A DNA stretch of 61,969 bases, filler included, from Candidatus Woesearchaeota archaeon (GCA_023266675.1; 5 parts of 5 records of this genome joined end to end with filler, not necessarily neighbours in it), one strand, 5' to 3'. Positions 2,107 through 54,082 are shown, counted from the whole stretch's first letter. Notes: a model not told the origin generated them from the sequence alone. A program made the numbers and translations.

Positions 2107-2204
2107 GAGCCCGTAGCTTAGCCTGGTGGAGCACTCGACTGATATAGGAATTCGTTCCTACAGAGATCGAGCGGTCCGGTGTTCGAATCACCGCGGGCTC
2201 ACCA
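2107..2204 (+). tRNA. tRNA-Ile(GAT) with 21-nt intron at 37/38 (2145-2165), CCA encoded
   Basis: Acceptor GAGCCCG/CGGGCTC, anticodon stem CTCGA/TCGAG, GAT at 2141-2143, T arm CGGTG-TTCGAAT-CACCG, relaxed BHB intron with AGGAA-TTCG-TTCCT hairpin. Confidence 0.95.
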
Positions 2205-2249
2205 TTTTTTATAATATTTTAAGTGAATTCTGATGTTTTGAAGAATTCG

Positions 2250-2303
2250 CTGTCTTTTGCTCGAGCTTTTGTAAAAGGTCGGTGGCAATCACCGCGGGCT
2301 CAC
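2250..2303 (+). repeat. Duplicate of tRNA-Ile 3' end preceded by an intron-like hairpin
   Basis: AATCACCGCGGGCTCAC at 2287-2303 is identical to 2186-2202. Confidence 0.85.
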
Positions 2304-8505: not shown

Positions 8506-8605
8506 NNNNNNNNNNNNNNNNNNNNNNNNNNNNNNNNNNNNNNNNNNNNTTAATTAATTAANNNNNNNNNNNNNNNNNNNNNNNNNNNNNNNNNNNNNNN
8601 NNNNN
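8506..8605. other. Artificial contig linker
   Basis: N44-TTAATTAATTAA-N44. Confidence 0.98.
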
Positions 8606-12420: not shown

Positions 12421-12801
12421 TCACTTCACAAACTCAACATTATCAAACTTCTCAAATTCCTTGTCTCCAGTCAAGAACTTAATTCCGAATTTTAAGGAGA
12501 TGGCATATCCTATGCAGTCAGTCATTGAAAGATTAATTTTTTTATGTTTGTTCTTAAATTCCGCTGCAACTTTTATCTCATCTCTACTAAAATCAACAAT
12601 ATAGAGATACCCTTTCTCAAGAAACTCCTCAGCTTGAGAGAATTTGTTATTTTTTATAAGACTATAATAGACTTCAAAAATATTTAATTTTGAGGTTATA
12701 ATCTCATAACCAGTATATTTTTTATATAACGGATTACCATTTGTTATTTCAATCAATGCATATGAATCAAAAAAGAAAGCATTAGTCATCGTATAATTCA
12801 C
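12421..12801 (-). CDS. vapC: PIN-domain toxin VapC
   Basis: FFDSYALIE, LSMTDC, LTGDKEF acidic PIN residues. Confidence 0.9.
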   Translation of the reverse strand: MNYTMTNAFFFDSYALIEITNGNPLYKKYTGYEIITSKLNIFEVYYSLIKNNKFSQAEEFLEKGYLYIVDFSRDEIKVAAEFKNKHKKINLSMTDCIGYAISLKFGIKFLTGDKEFEKFDNVEFVK

Positions 12802-13006
12802 GCCTCAACCCATCTTTCATCTTCTGCGCATTAATCTTGCTTCCTTTCATCATACCAAACATGCTTTTCATTGCGGCATTGTCTTTTATCATTAAAAATT
12901 TCACCTTATCGTTTATTTTTAGATTTTCTTCTTCTATTAAATCCATAGGGATTATTACTCCATATGAGTTTCCCCATTTCTTTATTACTCCTTCAACTTC
13001 AGCCAT
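12782..13006 (-). CDS. vapB: AbrB/MazE-type antitoxin VapB
   Basis: KKWGNSYGVIIP; directly upstream of and overlapping the PIN gene. Confidence 0.9.
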   Translation of the reverse strand: MAEVEGVIKKWGNSYGVIIPMDLIEEENLKINDKVKFLMIKDNAAMKSMFGMMKGSKINAQKMKDGLRRELYDD

Positions 13007-13084
13007 ATATAATCACCAAGTTATACAATGTATAACTAATATTTAAAGTTTTGGCTTTAAGTTATAAAAAATAAGAAACTCCCA

Positions 13085-13123
13085 TTTATATACCTCATGT
13101 GAGAATGTCCAGTGTCCAGTGGG
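13085..13123 (-). promoter_or_regulatory. TATA plus TGTCCAGTG-repeat module, copy upstream of vapBC
   Basis: TTTATATACCTCA..TGTCCAGTGTCCAGTG, similar to 15326-15355 and 32449-32485. Confidence 0.55.
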
Positions 13124-15058: not shown

Positions 15059-15171
15059 CGCCGAGGCCGGGAGTTTCACCCGAACACGTTAAGTGTTGCA
15101 GAATTTGAACCCGGAAGGCGTTAGCCAGAGGAGTTTCAAACCTCCACAATACCTAGTTATGTGACCTCGGC
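15059..15171 (-). tRNA. Class II (Ser-type body) tRNA with GAA at 34-36; 31-nt BHB intron at 59/60 (15073-15103)
   Basis: Acceptor GCCGAGG/CCTCGGC-G73, D stem ACA/TGT, anticodon arm GAGGT-TTGAAAC-TCCTC, V arm GGC-TAAC-GCC, T stem CCGGG/CCCGG, BHB helix TTCA/TGAA with 3-nt bulges. Confidence 0.88.
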
Positions 15172-15220: not shown

Positions 15221-15400
15221 ACACAAATTTTATATACTCTAACACCATCATAAGCTTTGGAGTTTCAAACCAATACAATATCAGGTCATGTGACCTTTTT
15301 TCTTTTTTTAATTATGGAGAATCAGTTTATATACCTCACGCGTCCATGTCCAGTGGGTTTTTTATAGGTTTATTGTCAACAAATAGATGTCCAGTGAGGA
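15221..15400 (-). repeat. ~190-bp upstream module shared with the tRNA at 32092-32326
   Basis: ACACAAATTTTATATACT and TTTATATACCTCACGCGTCCATGTCC are identical at 32337 and 32449; TGTCCAGTG repeats. Confidence 0.85.
15259..15296 (-). pseudogene. Degenerate copy of the 5' half of the adjacent tRNA
   Basis: GGAGTTTCAAACCAATACAATATCAGGTCATGTGACCT vs tRNA GGAGTTTCAAACCTCCACAATACCTAGTTATGTGACCT. Confidence 0.75.
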
Positions 15401-17061: not shown

Positions 17062-17161
17062 NNNNNNNNNNNNNNNNNNNNNNNNNNNNNNNNNNNNNNN
17101 NNNNNTTAATTAATTAANNNNNNNNNNNNNNNNNNNNNNNNNNNNNNNNNNNNNNNNNNNN
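17062..17161. other. Artificial contig linker
   Basis: N44-TTAATTAATTAA-N44. Confidence 0.98.
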
Positions 17162-25453: not shown

Positions 25454-25553
25454 NNNNNNNNNNNNNNNNNNNNNNNNNNNNNNNNNNNNNNNNNNNNTTA
25501 ATTAATTAANNNNNNNNNNNNNNNNNNNNNNNNNNNNNNNNNNNNNNNNNNNN
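25454..25553. other. Artificial contig linker
   Basis: N44-TTAATTAATTAA-N44. Confidence 0.98.
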
Positions 25554-26976: not shown

Positions 26977-27216
26977 ATGAAGAATGCTTGTTTATTCGTA
27001 ATCATAGTATTATCCTTATCTGTATTTACTGCTTGCAATGATTCTGAGAAAAGTACTGGAACAGCAAACCCTGCATCAATAAATTGCATTAAAGAAGGTT
27101 ATAACCTCACCATAAAAACAAACAGTGATGGAAGCCAGACAGGATATTGTATTTTCCCAAGTGGAAGAGAATGCGAAGAATGGCAATTTCTAAGAGGCGA
27201 ATGCAAGAATGAATAG
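26977..27216 (+). CDS. DUF333 family lipoprotein
   Basis: Lipobox-like TAC; ANPASINC...G.CIFPSG.ECEEWQFLRGEC. Confidence 0.88.
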   Translation: MKNACLFVIIVLSLSVFTACNDSEKSTGTANPASINCIKEGYNLTIKTNSDGSQTGYCIFPSGRECEEWQFLRGECKNE

Positions 27217-30200
27217 GCTAAAACTTTTTTTTATTAGTTTGTCATTCTTATTGATACTAAATATCACTTATGCTTATGTCAATCCTGCAATGGATTTATG
27301 CATGAAGCAAGGATACGAATACAATGTTGAGACAAATGAAGATGGTAGCCAAACAGGATATTGTGTGATAAAAGGAGAAGAATATGAAGTGTGGGAGTGG
27401 TATAATTCTAATAATTTAAAAAGAGATAATCAAGCAAAAATTTCAACTATTGAACCCATAAGTAGGGATAGATCAGATAATGAAACTCAACAAATCAATA
27501 AGAGTTACAATTCTCAAAAAACAGATAATAAGTTTAAAAGTTCTACGAGTAAAATTTCAAATTCTAGGAATGATATAACTGATACAACACGCGGATATAC
27601 CTCTCCAAGTTTGGATTGGAGAAACAAAGACGGACAAAACTGGGTAAGCCAAATTAAAGACCAAGGCGCTTGTGGCAGCTGCTGGGCTTTCTCTGCAAAT
27701 GGAGTTATGGAATCAAGAGTAAAAATCGACCTGAATAATGTAGGATACTCTGTAGACCTATCAGAACAGGATGCGTTAACTAATAATGTCTATGGAGGCA
27801 ACTGTATTGATGGAGGATTTGAATGGTATTCTTTTGATTACGCAAAGAACACCGGCATCGTAAAAGAGTCATGCATGCCTTACGGAGGAAGTAAATGTTC
27901 AAATTGGCAAAATGAAAAAATGATGCTTACGGATTATGCAAGAATTTCTGCTAATGCTAATAGCATAAAAGATGCTGTCACAGATTATGGACCAGTTACT
28001 TCATATATGGTTGTTTGCGATGGTTTTGACGGCACAGGAATATATTCTCATGTAGGAGATGTGTGGTTTGATGACTCATGCTGGCATGATGGAGGAGATG
28101 GATATTATTATCTAAATATGCATTCAGTTGATATAATAGGTTATGATGATTCAAGCCAATACTGGATTGCAAAAAACAGTTGGGGAACAGGATGGGGAGA
28201 TAATGGTTTTATCAAGATTGCTTATTCTCAAAGCGTTTATGATTATAGCAGCTGGCATTATGCTGTTTGGAATCTTGACGGAGGAGATCCCCGAGTATTT
28301 TTTTTAGATGATAGTTATTATGTGACTGGAACAGATACGCTAACAATCCCCACGATTAGCGCATTTTTCTCAAACAACAGTTATGCGCGCGGAGATAATA
28401 ATATAAGTTTCTCTGCAAACGTTCAGCCAAAATCTATCAAACAGATTTCAAGCGTGAGAATAAACGGAACAGACATGTCAGGAATTGCTACTGGCGGGAT
28501 ATTTACACTTTCTAAAAAACCATCAGACTTTGGCTGCCAGGATTTTGAAGGATACTGCAATTTACTTCTTACTGTGATCGATGATTCTGGAAAATCAAAC
28601 ACTGGAGAAATCAGCATACGAATAGACGATTTTGCGCCAAGAGTAACAGATTTTAAAATTAAGAATACTGATTATTATATAAAGAATCAAACTTTACTCT
28701 TAACTGTTAATGTTACAGATGCTGATATTAGTTCGGTCAAGATTAACAATGCCTCCTTCACATTTTCTGACAATCTTTACAGGTTTTATGTGACTCCTTA
28801 TGAAATAGGTTGCTTAAGTAATGCTGTTTGTGTTTTTAATGTTACAGCTATTGACGCTGTAGGAAATACTAACTATTCAGAATCAAAGATATTCTTTTTT
28901 GATGATGTGATGCCAACAATAAACAGCGTGAATAATTCTGATTACATTGTCAGGACTGGAACAAATGTAACCATCACAGTCAACGCGACAGATAATATTA
29001 ATATCTCATCAGTGACCGCTGAAGGTTTTGAATTAAATTATACTGATAATTTTTGGATAGGGAATATTACCCTATTAGGTAGTGGTTTTATTAATGTGAC
29101 TGTTATCGATTTTGCAGGCAATAGAGTTAATACTAATAATACTACATTAAATAATAATTTTATGGTTGGATATCAAATAGATGATACTCCACCGATAATT
29201 TCAAATCTACAAATAAATCCTAATCATGCAAAACTAAATTCACACGTAAATATCAGTTTTAACATAATAGACTCTCATTTTAGAATGTTAAATATTTCAA
29301 TTAATAACTCAATTATAAGACAAGAATCACTAGACACGATAAATAGTTATGATTATGGGTATGTTTACAATATTTCTTCAAACAATACTGAAGGAATAAC
29401 AACAGTAGAGATTATAATAATTGATGAAGCCGAGAATGTTGTTTATGCAAATTCCACGTTTATAATTGATTTTACTCCACCTAACATAACAGCGGTGTCT
29501 CCTCAAAATAATTCTCAGATTCACACAAACTACACGTGGATAAATCTGACAACAGATGAATCAACCATTTGTGGTGAGAATGATGAATACAATTACATTA
29601 TTTTTGATACAACTCCTCCTGCGCCGTTCAATGGAAGCCCAACAGGATCAGTTTCCAGTAATTTAGAATCAGGAATATGCGGTATAGATTCAGAATTCTT
29701 TACAAATGAGCGAGCAGATTGCAGAGGAAGTCTAGCTAATGGGACTATAAATAAGGAATTTCTTACTGCAGGTGACAGTGTAACGTTTAATGGGATAAAC
29801 GTGAGATTGGTAAGATGTGGTGCAGGCAATGCAGTAGTAGATATTGGTGGAACAGTTTACACAATAAATGAAGGAGACATACGAAATTCAAATGGAATAA
29901 AAGTTAGAGTTGAGAATATTTTCAATGAAGAAGGAACACAATATGATATGGCTACGGTAAGACTTGCAGATAGTGATAGTAATATTGCTTTACCTAATGA
30001 AGATTATAACACAATGAATATCACATTTGAATTATCACAAGAAGATGACTCAGTGTTTAGTTATTCGAGTAGAGTACAGGTAAACACAACAGATGAATAT
30101 AGTTTATATGTGAAATGTAAGGATATGGCTGGAAATCTTATGTCTGAGGGGTATAGCTGGAGTTTTATTATTGGAAGTGTTAGTTGTGGCTCTTCTAATA

Positions 30201-32065
30201 GTGGAGGGAATAGTGGCGGAGGAGGGAGTAGTGGTGTTAATGGAGAATATACAATTAACCACTCAGAATATTATGGCAATCTTTCTGATGATAGTATTTA
30301 TGTGAGAAAGTTTGTATGCACTGACTATGCAGGAAATTCAAAAACAATATCCTTTTCCAATCAGATAAATATCACTTACCCACCTTCAATAACAATTCTT
30401 TCCAACATCACTGTAAACGAAACTGATTTGATTAATTTCACAGTCAACGCTGCCGACCAGGATAATGACACTTTAACGTATTACATAAACAATCACAACT
30501 TTTCACAATTAAACAATAGTTTTTCGTGGCTGACAACGACAAACGACAGCGGAGTCTATAATATAATTATAATTGTGTCTGACAGCATATTCAACACAAC
30601 AGAGAGTTTTAATTTAACAATAAACGACGTTCCTGACAAAGACAAAGACAACATACCAGACAGCATCGACCCTGATGATGACAATGATGGAGTAAATGAT
30701 ACAAGCGACAAGCTTCTTGGATGTGGAAGTAGCATAAATACTTCAACAATGAATATGAGCCTAAAAGTTGATAACGCAACATTAAACAACACATATGAAG
30801 GCGAGAAGAATCTCACATTTTATGACGGCGAAAAACCGATAATTGATTTTATGTATAACTTCACAAATAGCACACTGGACCTTTATAGCATACGAATAGA
30901 AAAGCAGACAAATAATTCTCACGGACTAATAACTATCTCAGGACTTGAACTTCCAAATAACATGACAAAAATAGTCTATGTTGACAGATTAACAAATGAT
31001 ACAAACAGTGTTTGCGTTAAAGACTCAGAAAATACAAGTGTAAGCAGTCTTTGTGTTGATGCAGATGAATATCCAATTGACTGCCCGGGAACAAATAATG
31101 GATACGAGTGCACTCTTACAAATAATAACTTGACATTTAAAATAAGCGGACTCCATCATTCAGGTGTGAGCGAACAGACATACTGCGGTGACGGAACAAT
31201 TCAAAGCGGAGAAAGTTGTGAAGGTTCAAATTTAAACGGAAAAACATGCGCAACATATGGTTACAACGCTGGGTCGCTTTCATGCTCTAATTCATGCGCA
31301 ATAATCACATCAGGATGCTCAACAACAAGCAGTGGCAGTGGAGGCGGAGGGGGTGGCGGAGGAGGCGGAGGCTCATCATCAGGAGGCGGAGGAGGCGGTG
31401 GTTCTGTAGAAATTTATAATTTTGGAAACCTAAGCGAAACTGGAACTATGTTTATATCCAATGAAAAATATTCAGTGAGAGAGATATTTGTTAAAGTAAA
31501 TAATCTTGTTTTAAATGCAAAATTGTTTGTTGAAGAAAAAATAACAGTAAAAGATAATCCGTTAACTGATAAAAGAATTTACAAATATGTTGTTTTAAGC
31601 GGAAACGTTGAGAACGAGTTTAAAGAGGGAACAATAAAGTTTAGAATACCTAAAGTCTGGATTTCAAACACAACATACAATGAAAGCGAAATAATCCTAT
31701 CACAAGAAACAAACAATATTTGGAATGAATTATCAACAACAAAACTGGATACTGATGTAGAATATGGTTATTATTCCAGCAAGATAACAAAGATAGGAAC
31801 ATTTGCAATAGCACAAAAAGAAATCTTAAGACAAAAATCTCCAGAAAGCATCATTCCTAAAGAAAAGACAATAAAAACTGAAGTTAAAGCGATTAATAAT
31901 TCAGATAATAAAGAAACAGTTATTTTGTCAAACAATAAAAAAGACAATTCAGTTGTAAAAATAATAGTATATGCATTAGTTGCAGTGAGTATTATGACAG
32001 TAGTTGGATATGTTATAACAAATAAAAGAAAAAAAATAATTCATCATTCAAAACATCATAAATAA
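27209..32065 (+). CDS. Large membrane-anchored C1A (papain-like) cysteine protease with Ig-like, Ca-binding and PGF-pre-PGF-like domains
   Basis: LDWRN, DQGACGSCWAF, MHSVDIIGY, KNSWG; N-terminal DUF333-like repeat; DKDKDNIPDSIDPDDDNDG; Gly linkers; C-terminal TM and basic tail. Confidence 0.92.
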   Translation: MNRLKLFFISLSFLLILNITYAYVNPAMDLCMKQGYEYNVETNEDGSQTGYCVIKGEEYEVWEWYNSNNLKRDNQAKISTIEPISRDRSDNETQQINKSYNSQKTDNKFKSSTSKISNSRNDITDTTRGYTSPSLDWRNKDGQNWVSQIKDQGACGSCWAFSANGVMESRVKIDLNNVGYSVDLSEQDALTNNVYGGNCIDGGFEWYSFDYAKNTGIVKESCMPYGGSKCSNWQNEKMMLTDYARISANANSIKDAVTDYGPVTSYMVVCDGFDGTGIYSHVGDVWFDDSCWHDGGDGYYYLNMHSVDIIGYDDSSQYWIAKNSWGTGWGDNGFIKIAYSQSVYDYSSWHYAVWNLDGGDPRVFFLDDSYYVTGTDTLTIPTISAFFSNNSYARGDNNISFSANVQPKSIKQISSVRINGTDMSGIATGGIFTLSKKPSDFGCQDFEGYCNLLLTVIDDSGKSNTGEISIRIDDFAPRVTDFKIKNTDYYIKNQTLLLTVNVTDADISSVKINNASFTFSDNLYRFYVTPYEIGCLSNAVCVFNVTAIDAVGNTNYSESKIFFFDDVMPTINSVNNSDYIVRTGTNVTITVNATDNINISSVTAEGFELNYTDNFWIGNITLLGSGFINVTVIDFAGNRVNTNNTTLNNNFMVGYQIDDTPPIISNLQINPNHAKLNSHVNISFNIIDSHFRMLNISINNSIIRQESLDTINSYDYGYVYNISSNNTEGITTVEIIIIDEAENVVYANSTFIIDFTPPNITAVSPQNNSQIHTNYTWINLTTDESTICGENDEYNYIIFDTTPPAPFNGSPTGSVSSNLESGICGIDSEFFTNERADCRGSLANGTINKEFLTAGDSVTFNGINVRLVRCGAGNAVVDIGGTVYTINEGDIRNSNGIKVRVENIFNEEGTQYDMATVRLADSDSNIALPNEDYNTMNITFELSQEDDSVFSYSSRVQVNTTDEYSLYVKCKDMAGNLMSEGYSWSFIIGSVSCGSSNSGGNSGGGGSSGVNGEYTINHSEYYGNLSDDSIYVRKFVCTDYAGNSKTISFSNQINITYPPSITILSNITVNETDLINFTVNAADQDNDTLTYYINNHNFSQLNNSFSWLTTTNDSGVYNIIIIVSDSIFNTTESFNLTINDVPDKDKDNIPDSIDPDDDNDGVNDTSDKLLGCGSSINTSTMNMSLKVDNATLNNTYEGEKNLTFYDGEKPIIDFMYNFTNSTLDLYSIRIEKQTNNSHGLITISGLELPNNMTKIVYVDRLTNDTNSVCVKDSENTSVSSLCVDADEYPIDCPGTNNGYECTLTNNNLTFKISGLHHSGVSEQTYCGDGTIQSGESCEGSNLNGKTCATYGYNAGSLSCSNSCAIITSGCSTTSSGSGGGGGGGGGGGSSSGGGGGGGSVEIYNFGNLSETGTMFISNEKYSVREIFVKVNNLVLNAKLFVEEKITVKDNPLTDKRIYKYVVLSGNVENEFKEGTIKFRIPKVWISNTTYNESEIILSQETNNIWNELSTTKLDTDVEYGYYSSKITKIGTFAIAQKEILRQKSPESIIPKEKTIKTEVKAINNSDNKETVILSNNKKDNSVVKIIVYALVAVSIMTVVGYVITNKRKKIIHHSKHHK

Positions 32066-32091
32066 TATATTTTTACAATTAAAGAAAATAG

Positions 32092-32326
32092 CGCCGCGGC
32101 TGGGACTTCCACCAAACCTTTTAAGAAAAGGTTTAACAAAACAGTTCGGACTATTTCAAAAAAGAAATAGTCCTTAGCCTCGAGCGTCAACGGACGAAAC
32201 GGTTGTTTGAACCCAGAAGGCAGTTAAGCCAGCGAGGTGTCAAAAACTTATTTTTGAGCACGCAAAAAATTTAAAAAATTTTTAAGCGTTTCAGTTCGCC
32301 GTCATACCGACTTAGACGACCGCGGC
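32092..32326 (-). tRNA. Class II (Ser-type body) tRNA with GAA at 34-36; introns at 37/38 (~32238-32288) and 59/60 (32106-32205)
   Basis: Acceptor GCCGCGG/CCGCGGC-G73, D stem GTC/GAC, anticodon arm GCGAA-CTGAAA^C-CTCGC, V arm GGC-TTAACT-GCC, T stem CTGGG/CCCAG. The anticodon-intron boundary is ambiguous by about 1 nt. Confidence 0.82.
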
Positions 32327-32336
32327 ATCATTGCGA

Positions 32337-32522
32337 CACAAATTTTATATACTTTGACAACATTATTAGTTATCAGAGGTTTCAGTTCGTTGCAGTACCG
32401 ATTTAGATGACTGCATTTTTTCTTTTTTATTTATTTCAGAATTAACGATTTATATACCTCACGCGTCCATGTCCTGTGTCCAGTGAAGCGTTTTATCGTC
32501 GACAAATAAGTGTCCAGTGGAT
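32337..32522 (-). repeat. Upstream module shared with 15221-15400
   Basis: Same two TATA blocks and TGTCCAGTG repeats. Confidence 0.85.
32374..32414 (-). pseudogene. Degenerate intron-less copy of the 5' half of the adjacent tRNA
   Basis: CAGAGGTTTCAGTTCGTTGCAGTACCGATTTAGATGACTGC resembles the spliced form CAGCGAGG|TTTCAGTTCGCCGTCATACCGACTTAGACGACCGC. Confidence 0.75.
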
Positions 32523-32610
32523 AAAAAATAAATTATAGTTTAATATTGTCTTTTAAAAGTGGTAACATTAAAGAAAGGTTTATATACCTGATATTGATAA
32601 CTGAGGATTT

Positions 32611-34092
32611 ATGACAAATCATCAAGCTGATAGTGAAATGTACGGCGGGAAAGCTGCTAGTTTAATTGCCCAGTATGAAGCTGGAAACACTGATTTTCTT
32701 TTCCCTTTCACATTAATTGACCCTGATAAAGAAAAACCGACTTTTGATTTCGAAGGCTTGCAGATTGTAAGAGGTTCTGCTGCTGGCGACGAAAAAGGAC
32801 TGGTTGATGTCATAAAAACAATTCAAAATGTATCATCCAAAGATTTGAATTGTGAGATAGATATTGATTTACCAAGAAGAGAAAATTGGAGGTCTAATTA
32901 TATTAATAGTATGATGGATTTTCATAAAATAAGATCTGTACGTAATTCTATGAGTTATATAACTTATACTGATGATGAGATGAGAAGATTATTGATTGCA
33001 CTTGGAAAAGGTACTCTTTCACCAATAGATGAAATCATAAAAGATTCTAAAAGAGATGAAGTTGTATCCTTTGCAAAATGGGAAGGCAACATAGACTATA
33101 ATGGCGTTAAAAGTGTGATTATATCCCCTCAAAACATAGATGAAAGAAGAGGGCAGATAATTGAACACCCAAATATGGAAGGACACTACATAATTAATGT
33201 TGTTAATGCGGTTGTTAAAGACACAAGTGATATGAGAAGAGACCGAATTTATATGGATGAGATATTAGCGGATTCTTCAGGGAATATAGTTAAATTTGGA
33301 ATAAATAGTGTTGGAGAAAAGACATCTCCAAAAGAAGTTAAAGCAATAGTTGAGATGAAAAGAAGAGCCAAGGAGGTTGGGTTTATTTCTGGCTCTAAAA
33401 GTTCACAGGTTGAATTTGGTTTCTTTAATAAGGCACAAAAGTTAGAATCAAAAAAATATCAATACGCTGCAAAACCAAAATCACCGATAATATTTTATCA
33501 AGAGAGGGAATTTAGACCGTTTGACTTTGATGACCAATTTAATCCACAAAAATATGTATTCAACAGATTTGGAAGAATACCGCAGGAAGGTTTAGAATTA
33601 AGAGTTGTAGTAGTAGAAGAGAGTATGGATAGAAGTTTATTAAATGATGGTGTTCCTTCAATATACACTCCAGGTGCATCAAAAGGTATAGTTGGTGAAT
33701 CTTATCTTGATGTCGGACTCGCTTTAATGGCTGATTTAAATTTTAGACCAGAGAATATGCACGCTTATTTAGTGCCGATGAATACAAAGAATGGAAGCTC
33801 GCTTGAACATGGAAATTTTAGGTGGGCATCAAAAGCGCCAATTTCGTTATTAAAATTAAGGATAGGAGACCGTTCTTACTCTGATGATTACAGAACCGGA
33901 GAAATGATAATGTTAACTCCTGATTTAAGGATATCTAATTCCTCTACAAGTTCACAAATAAGTCCCCATGATGCACTTAGCTTGGCGTTAGTTCAGCTAA
34001 CTGATTCTCATAATGAGTTAAAAAAGAGCTTATCAAGAATGGGTGATACTCCTCTTGATGATTTGTATTTGCCGTCTCCTGACAAAATATAA
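32611..34092 (+). CDS. Hypothetical protein, weak PPDK/PEP-synthase ATP-grasp-like motifs
   Basis: YGGKAASL, IVRGSAAGDE, QVEFG, FYQER. Confidence 0.55.
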   Translation: MTNHQADSEMYGGKAASLIAQYEAGNTDFLFPFTLIDPDKEKPTFDFEGLQIVRGSAAGDEKGLVDVIKTIQNVSSKDLNCEIDIDLPRRENWRSNYINSMMDFHKIRSVRNSMSYITYTDDEMRRLLIALGKGTLSPIDEIIKDSKRDEVVSFAKWEGNIDYNGVKSVIISPQNIDERRGQIIEHPNMEGHYIINVVNAVVKDTSDMRRDRIYMDEILADSSGNIVKFGINSVGEKTSPKEVKAIVEMKRRAKEVGFISGSKSSQVEFGFFNKAQKLESKKYQYAAKPKSPIIFYQEREFRPFDFDDQFNPQKYVFNRFGRIPQEGLELRVVVVEESMDRSLLNDGVPSIYTPGASKGIVGESYLDVGLALMADLNFRPENMHAYLVPMNTKNGSSLEHGNFRWASKAPISLLKLRIGDRSYSDDYRTGEMIMLTPDLRISNSSTSSQISPHDALSLALVQLTDSHNELKKSLSRMGDTPLDDLYLPSPDKI

Positions 34093-53982: not shown

Positions 53983-54082
53983 NNNNNNNNNNNNNNNNNN
54001 NNNNNNNNNNNNNNNNNNNNNNNNNNTTAATTAATTAANNNNNNNNNNNNNNNNNNNNNNNNNNNNNNNNNNNNNNNNNNNN
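53983..54082. other. Artificial contig linker
   Basis: N44-TTAATTAATTAA-N44. Confidence 0.98.

Follow-up and report, generated by a model that had tools for sequence, protein, structure and literature searches.

A serine-type tRNA gene with a GAA anticodon and two inserts

The stretch of DNA analyzed here (the window, 61,969 nt) comes from a Candidatus Woesearchaeota archaeon (GCA_023266675.1), and its positions 32092-32326 carry, on the minus strand, a predicted class II tRNA gene with a serine-type body, G73, a GAA anticodon and two inserts (gene 2). The window joins contigs C30, C31, C32, C33 and C35 of one genome through linkers of N runs with TTAATTAATTAA (8506-8605, 17062-17161, 25454-25553 and 53983-54082), and distances that span a linker are therefore meaningless. 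The genome (G000) is Woesearchaeota-like, with 1,224,635 bases in 83 contigs, 95.9% completeness and 35% G+C. An earlier note on this DNA, which left the strand unstated, had placed gene 2 at exactly these positions and on a different contig from a related gene near 15 kb (gene 1). This was borne out, with gene 2 on C33 and gene 1 on C31.

Reading of the sequence together with alignment to a covariance model (R1, below) divided gene 2 into three exons. Exon 1 (32289-32326) supplies the 5' strand of the acceptor stem, the D arm, the 5' strand of the anticodon stem and loop positions 32-37. Exon 2 (32206-32237) supplies position 38, the 3' strand of the anticodon stem, the variable arm, the 5' strand of the T stem and T-loop positions 54-59, and exon 3 (32092-32105) supplies U60, the 3' strands of the T and acceptor stems and G73, with CCA not encoded. 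The exons are separated by insert 1 (51 nt, 32238-32288, at site 37/38) and insert 2 (100 nt, 32106-32205, at site 59/60). The predicted mature tRNA is 84 nt long and has 22 of 23 stem pairs intact; the fold z-score was -5.36. The mature form consists of an acceptor stem with all seven pairs followed by U8, a D stem GTC/GAC with GG in its loop and then G26, an anticodon stem of four pairs plus an A·C at 31:39, a loop CTGAAA-C (the dash marks the insert), a 15-nt variable region with a GGC/GCC stem, a T stem CTGGG/CCCAG and a T-loop TTCAAA-T. These features are not those of a tRNA-Phe, which is class I with a short variable loop and A73. The plus strand of the region resembles unrelated hairpins, and plus-strand hairpin small RNAs or an RNA like that of the signal recognition particle were rejected once the cloverleaf had been found on the minus strand.

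Unspliced, gene 2 was missed by ARAGORN, and RF00005 gave no gathering-score match in the window and no match at E ≤ 10 within 31800-32700, because the two inserts interrupt the gene. When the inserts were removed in a script, ARAGORN reported a tRNA with anticodon gaa. Rfam searches at E ≤ 10 over the loci of genes 1 and 2 returned chance matches only, and the element upstream of the genes (below) contained no C/D box and matched no other family.

The anticodon GAA (positions 34-36, 32290-32292) lies in a loop that directly adjoins the 5' stem strand and fits the YTGANAC loops of the paralogs. GAA was favored because paralogs without an intron carry YTGANAC immediately after the stem, and because a diverged upstream copy of the gene (below) runs from the loop into the 3' stem strand, 3 nt past the junction; this copy scored 41 when aligned with spliced gene 2 and 35 when aligned with the unspliced gene. 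The earlier note had tied the 37/38 position of the 51-nt intron to a GAA anticodon. Both the paralog loops and the upstream copy uphold that reading, which is qualified by the lack of a canonical bulge-helix-bulge (BHB) at the site and by an alternative junction earlier in the loop that would give CTGACAC, hence GAC (Val), itself without BHB support. No serine anticodon (NGA or GCU) is present in gene 2, and no splice junction yields a serine loop with U33. Two routes back to serine decoding were also rejected: shifted registers that yield UGA (Ser) are unsupported by the stems and would give gene 2 a C33, and editing of A35 to inosine would rescue GAA and neither GAU nor GAG.

Six paralogs with compensatory changes

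A combination of BLAST and reading identified six paralogs in the 1.22-Mb genome, three with GAA (gene 1 on C31, gene 2 on C33 and one on C66), two with GAU (C57 and C34) and one with GAG (C78, where the contig end cuts the gene). Gene 1 (15059-15171, minus strand) has a single 31-nt insert at 59/60 (15073-15103). When inserts were removed from the five complete paralogs in the script, ARAGORN reported each one as a tRNA (82-85 nt) whose anticodon, gaa or gat, is centered on position 35. All six have the 7/5 configuration of acceptor and T arms, not the 8/4 or 9/3 configuration that defines allo-tRNAs.

The earlier note had reported compensatory stem changes between genes 1 and 2, and our comparison agreed: at seven pairs both partners differ (5:68, all three pairs of the D stem, 28:42, 30:40 and 50:64). 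Of the traits that it listed as kept, the 31:39 mismatch does not extend to the family, as U:A or U·G stands at this pair in the remaining four paralogs. In an alignment of five paralogs (117 columns), 98.5% of cells paired across the cloverleaf and a helix between the T-loop and its insert, compared with 37-52% in slid controls. Compensatory change on both sides was seen at 10 of 27 pairs, and none of 500 shuffles matched this result. R1 was built from the five other paralogs, with gene 2 left out of training, and recovered gene 2 at full length with 68.3 bits (E = 5.3e-15 in 170,565 bases). Gene 2 is very probably a real member of a maintained tRNA family.

Distribution among relatives

A covariance-model search of the kind that the earlier note had proposed was carried out with R1 over 61 and then 151 genomes; the best 30 loci per search, 40 further regions and two closed genomes were inspected. 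This analysis revealed 41 genes that combine a class II body and G73 with an anticodon containing A35 (hereafter odd genes) in at least 22 genomes, all of the same order. The genome count is a lower bound, and for other orders the only observation is that none appeared among the top loci. G73 is present in all 39 odd genes that were tabulated, whose anticodons are GAA (19), GAU (12), GAG (4) and one each of UAG, UAA, CAA and CAG (the last at L171). Most have a 7-nt loop with U33 and a purine at 37, and a canonical T-loop, G18G19 and 7/5 arms recur among them. One of the closed genomes (G019) contains a single odd gene. A pattern scan of metagenome contigs gave 49 matches, six of them tRNA-like by R1, and five scored 84-106 bits (two were identical), with GAA or GAU and the same flanks. 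The scan of viral contigs for the family pattern gave no match. These genes form a conserved and structurally constrained class II family that joins a body of the tRNA-Ser type to an A35 anticodon (GAA, GAU, GAG, UAG, UAA, CAA or CAG).

That gene 2 is instead a decayed tRNA-Ser(GGA), or a chance cloverleaf, is scarcely credible. GAA is one substitution away from GGA, and no normal tRNA-Ser(GGA) was found in the assembly. Against decay stand the compensatory changes among six paralogs, the retention of the loop in 41 genes of at least 22 genomes and the covariance-model match to gene 2 (E = 5e-15). The same observations support the claim of the earlier note that the family is maintained.

Serine-type genes with G73 and unusual loops were also seen, namely TTGTCCA (GUC, Asp), TCAAGAC (AAG, with C33) and CTGAACC (GAA, with C37), at L050 (G060:C84:1087-1199), L163:2858-2958 (G162), L039 and L178. 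These may be decaying members or further variants.

Serine kinship of the tRNA body

The next best match to R1 in G000 was tRNA-Ser(UGA) (53.7 bits), which makes it the nearest normal tRNA to the odd family, and normal Ser tRNAs of relatives scored 54-90 bits. A GCCG-type acceptor stem, the D arm and G73 are common to the odd family and these normal Ser tRNAs. The genome separately encodes a normal tRNA-Phe(GAA) (C77:755-861, loop CTGAAGA, A73), a normal tRNA-Ile(GAU) and a normal tRNA-Leu(GAG) with A73. It has a single gene for seryl-tRNA synthetase (SerRS; 430 aa, on C1), and no second one was found in the genome. Because of the serine kinship, the separate normal Phe, Ile and Leu tRNAs and the single SerRS, we read the body of gene 2 as serine and its anticodon as phenylalanine.

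Normal tRNA-Ser genes with GCU, GGA or CGA were not found in the 83-contig assembly by the family model, by a loop and stem scan or by a D-arm scan, so that the sole normal tRNA-Ser (UGA, C12:1205-1288) faces six odd Ser-type genes. The missing genes may reflect an assembly gap; repeats at odd genes may break the assembly, since the C78 gene is cut by a contig end.

Charging could in principle follow the anticodon, with phenylalanyl-tRNA synthetase (PheRS) acting on gene 2 and IleRS or LeuRS on the paralogs. The odd genes would then be extra class II isoacceptors that cause no mistranslation, and we consider this very unlikely. The anticodon is a major identity element for PheRS and IleRS, and some relatives (L053) have the normal Phe-type loop CTGAAGA with G37, both of which favor such charging. 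However, the odd genes all have G73 where A73 is found in this genome's normal tRNAs for Phe, Ile and Leu, and the acceptor stems of the GAA, GAU and GAG members are nearly identical and resemble tRNA-Ser. The normal isoacceptors are already present, and a private antisense RNA (below) would be left without a reason.

A diverged upstream copy with the signals of an antisense RNA

In this genome each of the five complete loci is preceded by a diverged sense copy that covers tRNA positions ~5-42. In relatives the copies span other 5' parts, either the acceptor strand and D arm or the anticodon arm and variable arm. At gene 2 the minus strand of 32373-32422 is this partial sense copy, and the plus strand is predicted to encode an antisense small RNA of ~50 nt, whose 5' part could pair with tRNA positions ~4-42 and thus with the anticodon loop. 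The predicted RNA contains a 3' hairpin (32391-32415) followed by a T-run, which places its likely end. Across the loci the predicted antisense RNAs are 35-55 nt long, and many of them finish in a hairpin ahead of the T-run. A TATA box TTTATATA, preceded by a conserved stretch CGACACAAA, occupies 32344-32351 on the plus strand and is kept at five of five loci; the complementarity starts ~22 nt beyond it. Archaeal TATA boxes lie ~22-27 nt upstream of the transcription start, and oligo-T tracts terminate transcription. The TATA box is only 16-17 nt from the 5' end of gene 2. Measured in the sense direction, its distance to the odd tRNA is 6-17 nt across loci, compared with at least 23 nt at normal tRNA genes here. 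It is too close to the tRNA to serve it, and we read it as the promoter of the antisense RNA. The same module precedes gene 1, with an antisense TATA at 15229-15236, a predicted antisense RNA at ~15259-15302 (plus strand) and a tRNA-facing promoter at 15326-15342.

Upstream copies (alignment score of at least 26) were present at 26 of 39 odd genes and at 6 of 62 normal Ser genes. The copy was bounded on its far side by an A-run in 19 of 26 odd cases and none of the six normal ones, and an antisense TATA 17-26 nt before the complementarity gave the same counts (19/26 and 0/6). Substitutions from tRNA to copy were strongly skewed, with 48 G>A and 18 T>C compared with 4 C>T and 5 A>G, alongside 31 transversions; the aligned positions comprised 239 G, 200 C, 198 A and 183 T. 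An antisense transcript would stay paired with the tRNA, through G·U, only after G>A or T>C, and this bias therefore predicts a cognate antisense RNA. Calculated duplexes between antisense RNA and cognate tRNA ranged from -48 to -64 kcal/mol, compared with -17 to -47 kcal/mol for non-cognate paralogs, -20 to -28 kcal/mol for tRNA-Ser(UGA) and about -18 to -24 kcal/mol for shuffles. For gene 2 the cognate duplex was -63.8 kcal/mol (shuffle mean -22.8), and its copy fits the D stem and loop of gene 2 best. A promoter of its own, a terminator and complementarity are thus all present at the level of sequence, and the signals and substitution pattern of the inverted partial copy are those of a predicted antisense RNA. 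Each odd tRNA is apparently paired with its own.

Three other readings of the copy were rejected. A sense leader acting as a competitor predicts the opposite substitution bias to that observed. A split tRNA or trans-splicing fails because part of the acceptor strand is missing and the copied parts vary by locus, and duplication of an integrase att site does not suit copies that are diverged and only 35-125 nt away.

A promoter common to odd tRNA genes and toxin-antitoxin operons

All five loci carry a conserved promoter that faces the tRNA and is composed of CACTGGACA boxes, CGCGTGAG and TATA. At gene 2 this promoter A occupies 32449-32485 on the minus strand, has repeated CACTGGACA-like boxes, CGCGTGAGG and then TATATAAA, and points toward the copy and the tRNA. 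It is probably the tRNA's own promoter, with a predicted leader of roughly 130 nt. Promoter A spans ~40 nt in all (CACTGGACA boxes, CGCGTGAGR, TATATAAA), and its motif gave nine matches: the five odd tRNA loci, a MazE-PIN operon, a DUF7557-ParE operon, a gene for a 177-aa protein without a family, and a weak match that was set aside. Matches in the window lie at 13085-13101, 15326-15342 and 32449-32465, and those elsewhere in G000 at C9:9233, C13:8621, C34:25196, C57:7974 and C66:16788. The protein genes lie downstream of promoter A in the same direction, and the motif is also kept in metagenome contig L233. Within the window the operon in question (12421-13101, minus strand) comprises a MazE-like antitoxin (12782-13006) and a PIN toxin (12421-12801) behind the promoter copy at 13085-13101. 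That promoter A is common to the odd-tRNA loci, both operons and the gene for the 177-aa protein suggests one regulator for all of them.

Another possibility is that the odd RNAs are tRNA-shaped and act outside translation, as decoys or substrates of anticodon-loop nucleases, as antisense titrators or as non-ribosomal aminoacyl donors. We judge this unlikely. The link to the MazE-PIN operon favors it, PIN being a candidate anticodon-loop nuclease, as do a dedicated antisense RNA, which is unusual for a decoding tRNA, and the dispensability of the odd family, of which the closed genome G075 has no member. In the available part of a report on bacterial allo-tRNAs, most of the allo-tRNA(UAU) tested were inactive in translation, and toxin-antitoxin linkage was described (PMC5389517). 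However, the decoding features are conserved (U33, mostly a purine at 37, the T-loop, G18G19 and 7/5 arms), and the restriction of the anticodons to A35 triplets for Phe, Ile and Leu is patterned in codon space.

Splicing signals and the state of gene 2

The insert at 59/60 is 100 nt long in gene 2 and 31, 29, 31 and 31 nt long in the four paralogs measured. In the paralogs, TTCA of the T-loop pairs with TGAA near the 3' end of the insert in a helix that is invariant in 5/5, and a 3-nt bulge that closes with U60 comes next. A canonical BHB has two 3-nt bulges flanking a 4-bp helix. This predicted helix and bulge have the geometry expected of an archaeal BHB site. Insert 2 of gene 2 keeps a relaxed version, with a 4-bp TTCA:TGGA helix (one G·U) and the 3' bulge AGT but an indistinct inner helix. 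Relatives commonly carry an insert at 59/60 in their normal Ser tRNAs as well. The genome encodes two EndA-family (PF01974) splicing-endonuclease subunits of 211 and 208 aa, together with RtcB, and its normal tRNA-Ile also has an imperfect BHB.

No canonical BHB was found at insert 1, where free and constrained folds gave a three-way junction and the would-be central helix, drawn by hand, combines a single Watson-Crick pair with two G·U pairs and a mismatch. T5-T6 runs act as terminators in archaea. The AT-rich insert 1 contains two T6 runs and one T5 run, and insert 2 one T6 run; the other five paralogs have none within them. Insert 2 consists of a dispersed hairpin repeat that matched at least 10 other contigs at E ≤ 1e-3. 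DNA read depth, taken from a groundwater metagenome run, the only DNA run found to contain the stretch, summed to 91-96 at 32143-32196 compared with 6-8 in the flanks (about tenfold). The single RNA run from that sample placed no reads over 31900-32700, which weighs neither for nor against expression. Because of the T5-T6 runs in both inserts and the lack of a canonical BHB at insert 1, gene 2 may be weakly expressed or impaired. A stronger form of this view is that the family is real and gene 2 itself is a dying or silenced copy, whose inserts stop transcription or splicing so that no mature tRNA is made. We hold this to be rather unlikely, although it would account for each of these features and for the contrast with the short, T-run-free paralogs. 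In a genome with 35% G+C, gene 2 retains 22 of 23 pairs along with U8, G18G19, U33, A37, the T-loop and G73. Both of its promoter modules and a cognate copy with a strongly stable duplex are intact, and the copy crosses the proposed splice junction with the better score for the spliced form. The two EndA paralogs and the imperfect BHB of the normal tRNA-Ile likewise count against a dying copy.

The ~100-nt dispersed repeat is made of two hairpins joined by AACTGTTTTGTT and occurs on contigs C8, C44, C47, C49, C50, C52, C55, C58, C76 and C83. It often adjoins or directly follows tRNA genes and shortly precedes the CACTGGACA promoter. Several normal tRNAs have a related AACACGGCG-hairpin-CACC element upstream. 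The repeat may represent a miniature mobile element or a module for termination.

A proposed mechanism

We propose that the odd genes encode Ser-charged, mis-decoding tRNAs restrained by antisense RNAs, a scheme that, taken whole, we rate at even chances. The precursor would be transcribed from promoter A with a long leader, spliced and given CCA. The single SerRS, which does not read anticodons, would charge the gene 2 tRNA with serine, and this tRNA would insert serine at UUY (Phe) codons while its paralogs would do so at AUY and CUY. A divergent antisense RNA of 35-55 nt would start ~22 nt past its own TATA and end at the T-run. It would pair with the D, anticodon or variable arm of its own tRNA, with G·U tolerated, and this pairing would neutralize the tRNA or trigger its decay. 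The proposal provides each odd tRNA with a private antisense RNA because serine misinsertion would be harmful.

The tRNA-side promoter is common to type II toxin-antitoxin operons, and the pairs may therefore form an RNA-only toxin-antitoxin system or a stress-induced mistranslation switch. In such a module a Ser-charged tRNA "toxin" would scramble hydrophobic positions, an antisense "antitoxin" would unfold the tRNA from a toehold on its anticodon loop, D arm or variable arm, and the CACTGGACA-box promoter would govern expression, with dormancy, abortive infection or stress mistranslation as the outcome. We offer this further step tentatively and think it doubtful.

Several points weigh against the proposed mechanism. 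At gene 2 they are the features of the inserts described above, namely the missing canonical BHB at insert 1, the repeat shared with other contigs and the T-runs absent from the paralogs. In the closed genome G075 odd genes are absent beside four normal Ser tRNAs, which makes the family dispensable. The upstream copy is missing from 13 of 39 odd genes, including all four of genome G046. The substitution counts are not independent, many loci being mutually related, and their bias could partly reflect transcription-associated deamination and not selection. Promoters, transcription starts and terminators were set by consensus spacing alone. Misinsertion of serine at the commonest hydrophobic codons would do severe harm, with a benefit that is undemonstrated. 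Finally, dual or Phe charging of the gene 2 tRNA is conceivable, as PheRS reads GAA.

Relation to known systems

In CTG-clade yeasts, tRNA-Ser(CAG) underlies a fixed or ambiguous reassignment and no abundant Leu tRNA competes for the codon. The odd family is alike in joining a Ser body to a Leu anticodon in the one relative that carries CAG (L171) and differs in that normal Phe, Ile and Leu tRNAs coexist with it in this genome. The multi-intron tRNA genes of archaea, for example in Thermoproteales, have non-canonical introns and anticodons that fit their bodies. They resemble the odd genes in their 37/38 and T-loop introns, relaxed BHB motifs, two EndA subunits and escape from tRNA finders, so that the gene structure is already known, whereas the anticodon mismatch and the antisense partner are not. 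In type I toxin-antitoxin systems and RNA-only pairs such as archaeal CreT/CreA, a harmful product encoded nearby is opposed by a small RNA that has a promoter and terminator of its own. The cis-encoded antisense RNA with its own promoter and terminator is the point of likeness, read here from the DNA; the harmful product is presumed to be a tRNA in the odd family, compared with a peptide or a tRNA-sequestering mRNA in those systems.

According to the available part of their description, bacterial allo-tRNAs have Ser identity with non-Ser anticodons and insert serine at sense and stop codons in E. coli; their genes are often near toxin-antitoxin genes and show 35 kinds of anticodon, with UAU, GCG and GUC predominant (PMC5389517). 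They share a long variable arm, Ser identity, a non-Ser anticodon and uncultured hosts with the odd family. As far as that part goes, allo-tRNAs are bacterial with 8/4 or 9/3 arms and no introns or antisense partner described, whereas the odd family is archaeal with 7/5 arms, inserts and a predicted antisense RNA. Nematode nev-tRNAs, as portrayed in the accessible portion of PMC3333845, are class II tRNAs with a Gly or Ile anticodon on a Leu body that are clade-conserved, weakly expressed and able to decode in vitro. Like the odd family they are class II with an anticodon that disagrees with the amino acid of the body. They differ, on the same partial account, in being eukaryotic, derived from tRNA-Leu and charged with Leu, in matching rare codons where the odd family matches abundant UUY and AUY, and in having no antisense partner described. 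A full-text literature search and the available parts of two reviews (PMC9499178 and PMC7609411), supplements excepted, yielded neither a Ser-type tRNA with a Phe, Ile or Leu anticodon in archaea nor an antisense partner specific to a tRNA.

Disagreement between body and anticodon is rare among natural tRNAs and bears on how far the genetic code can bend. Known examples come from bacteria (allo-tRNA), nematodes (nev-tRNA) and fungi (CUG); if our reading is true, an archaeal, order-wide family would be added. This family would target the commonest hydrophobic codons in tiny genomes that are ill able to keep useless genes, and cells would police a dangerous tRNA by RNA, a claim that is testable. 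Because standard finders miss all six genes, tRNA sets and inferences about the code for these genomes are incomplete. The tRNA/antisense pairs might also serve as compact orthogonal switches for controlled mistranslation.

Neighboring gene and further tRNA observations

A 1618-aa protein encoded at 27209-32065 (plus strand) ends 27 nt from the 3' end of gene 2. It has an N-terminal DUF333 and a papain-type cysteine protease domain, followed by a hydrophobic stretch and then a basic C-terminal tail.

The window also contains the tRNA-Ile(GAU) gene (2107-2302, plus strand), which has a 21-nt intron at 37/38 and is miscalled by ARAGORN as Tyr(ata) or Ser(aga). The 16 nt at its 3' end recur exactly at 2287-2302, ~85 nt downstream, with a hairpin repeat between the two. 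The same 3'-end duplication, with copies of 11-16 nt, was found at tRNA-His and tRNA-Thr on C52 and at tRNA-Arg on C11. Archaea usually decode AUA with a modified CAU anticodon. At C73:6270-6409 (plus strand) of G000 lies an Ile-type tRNA body whose loop reads UAU, with inserts at 37/38 and in the T-loop.

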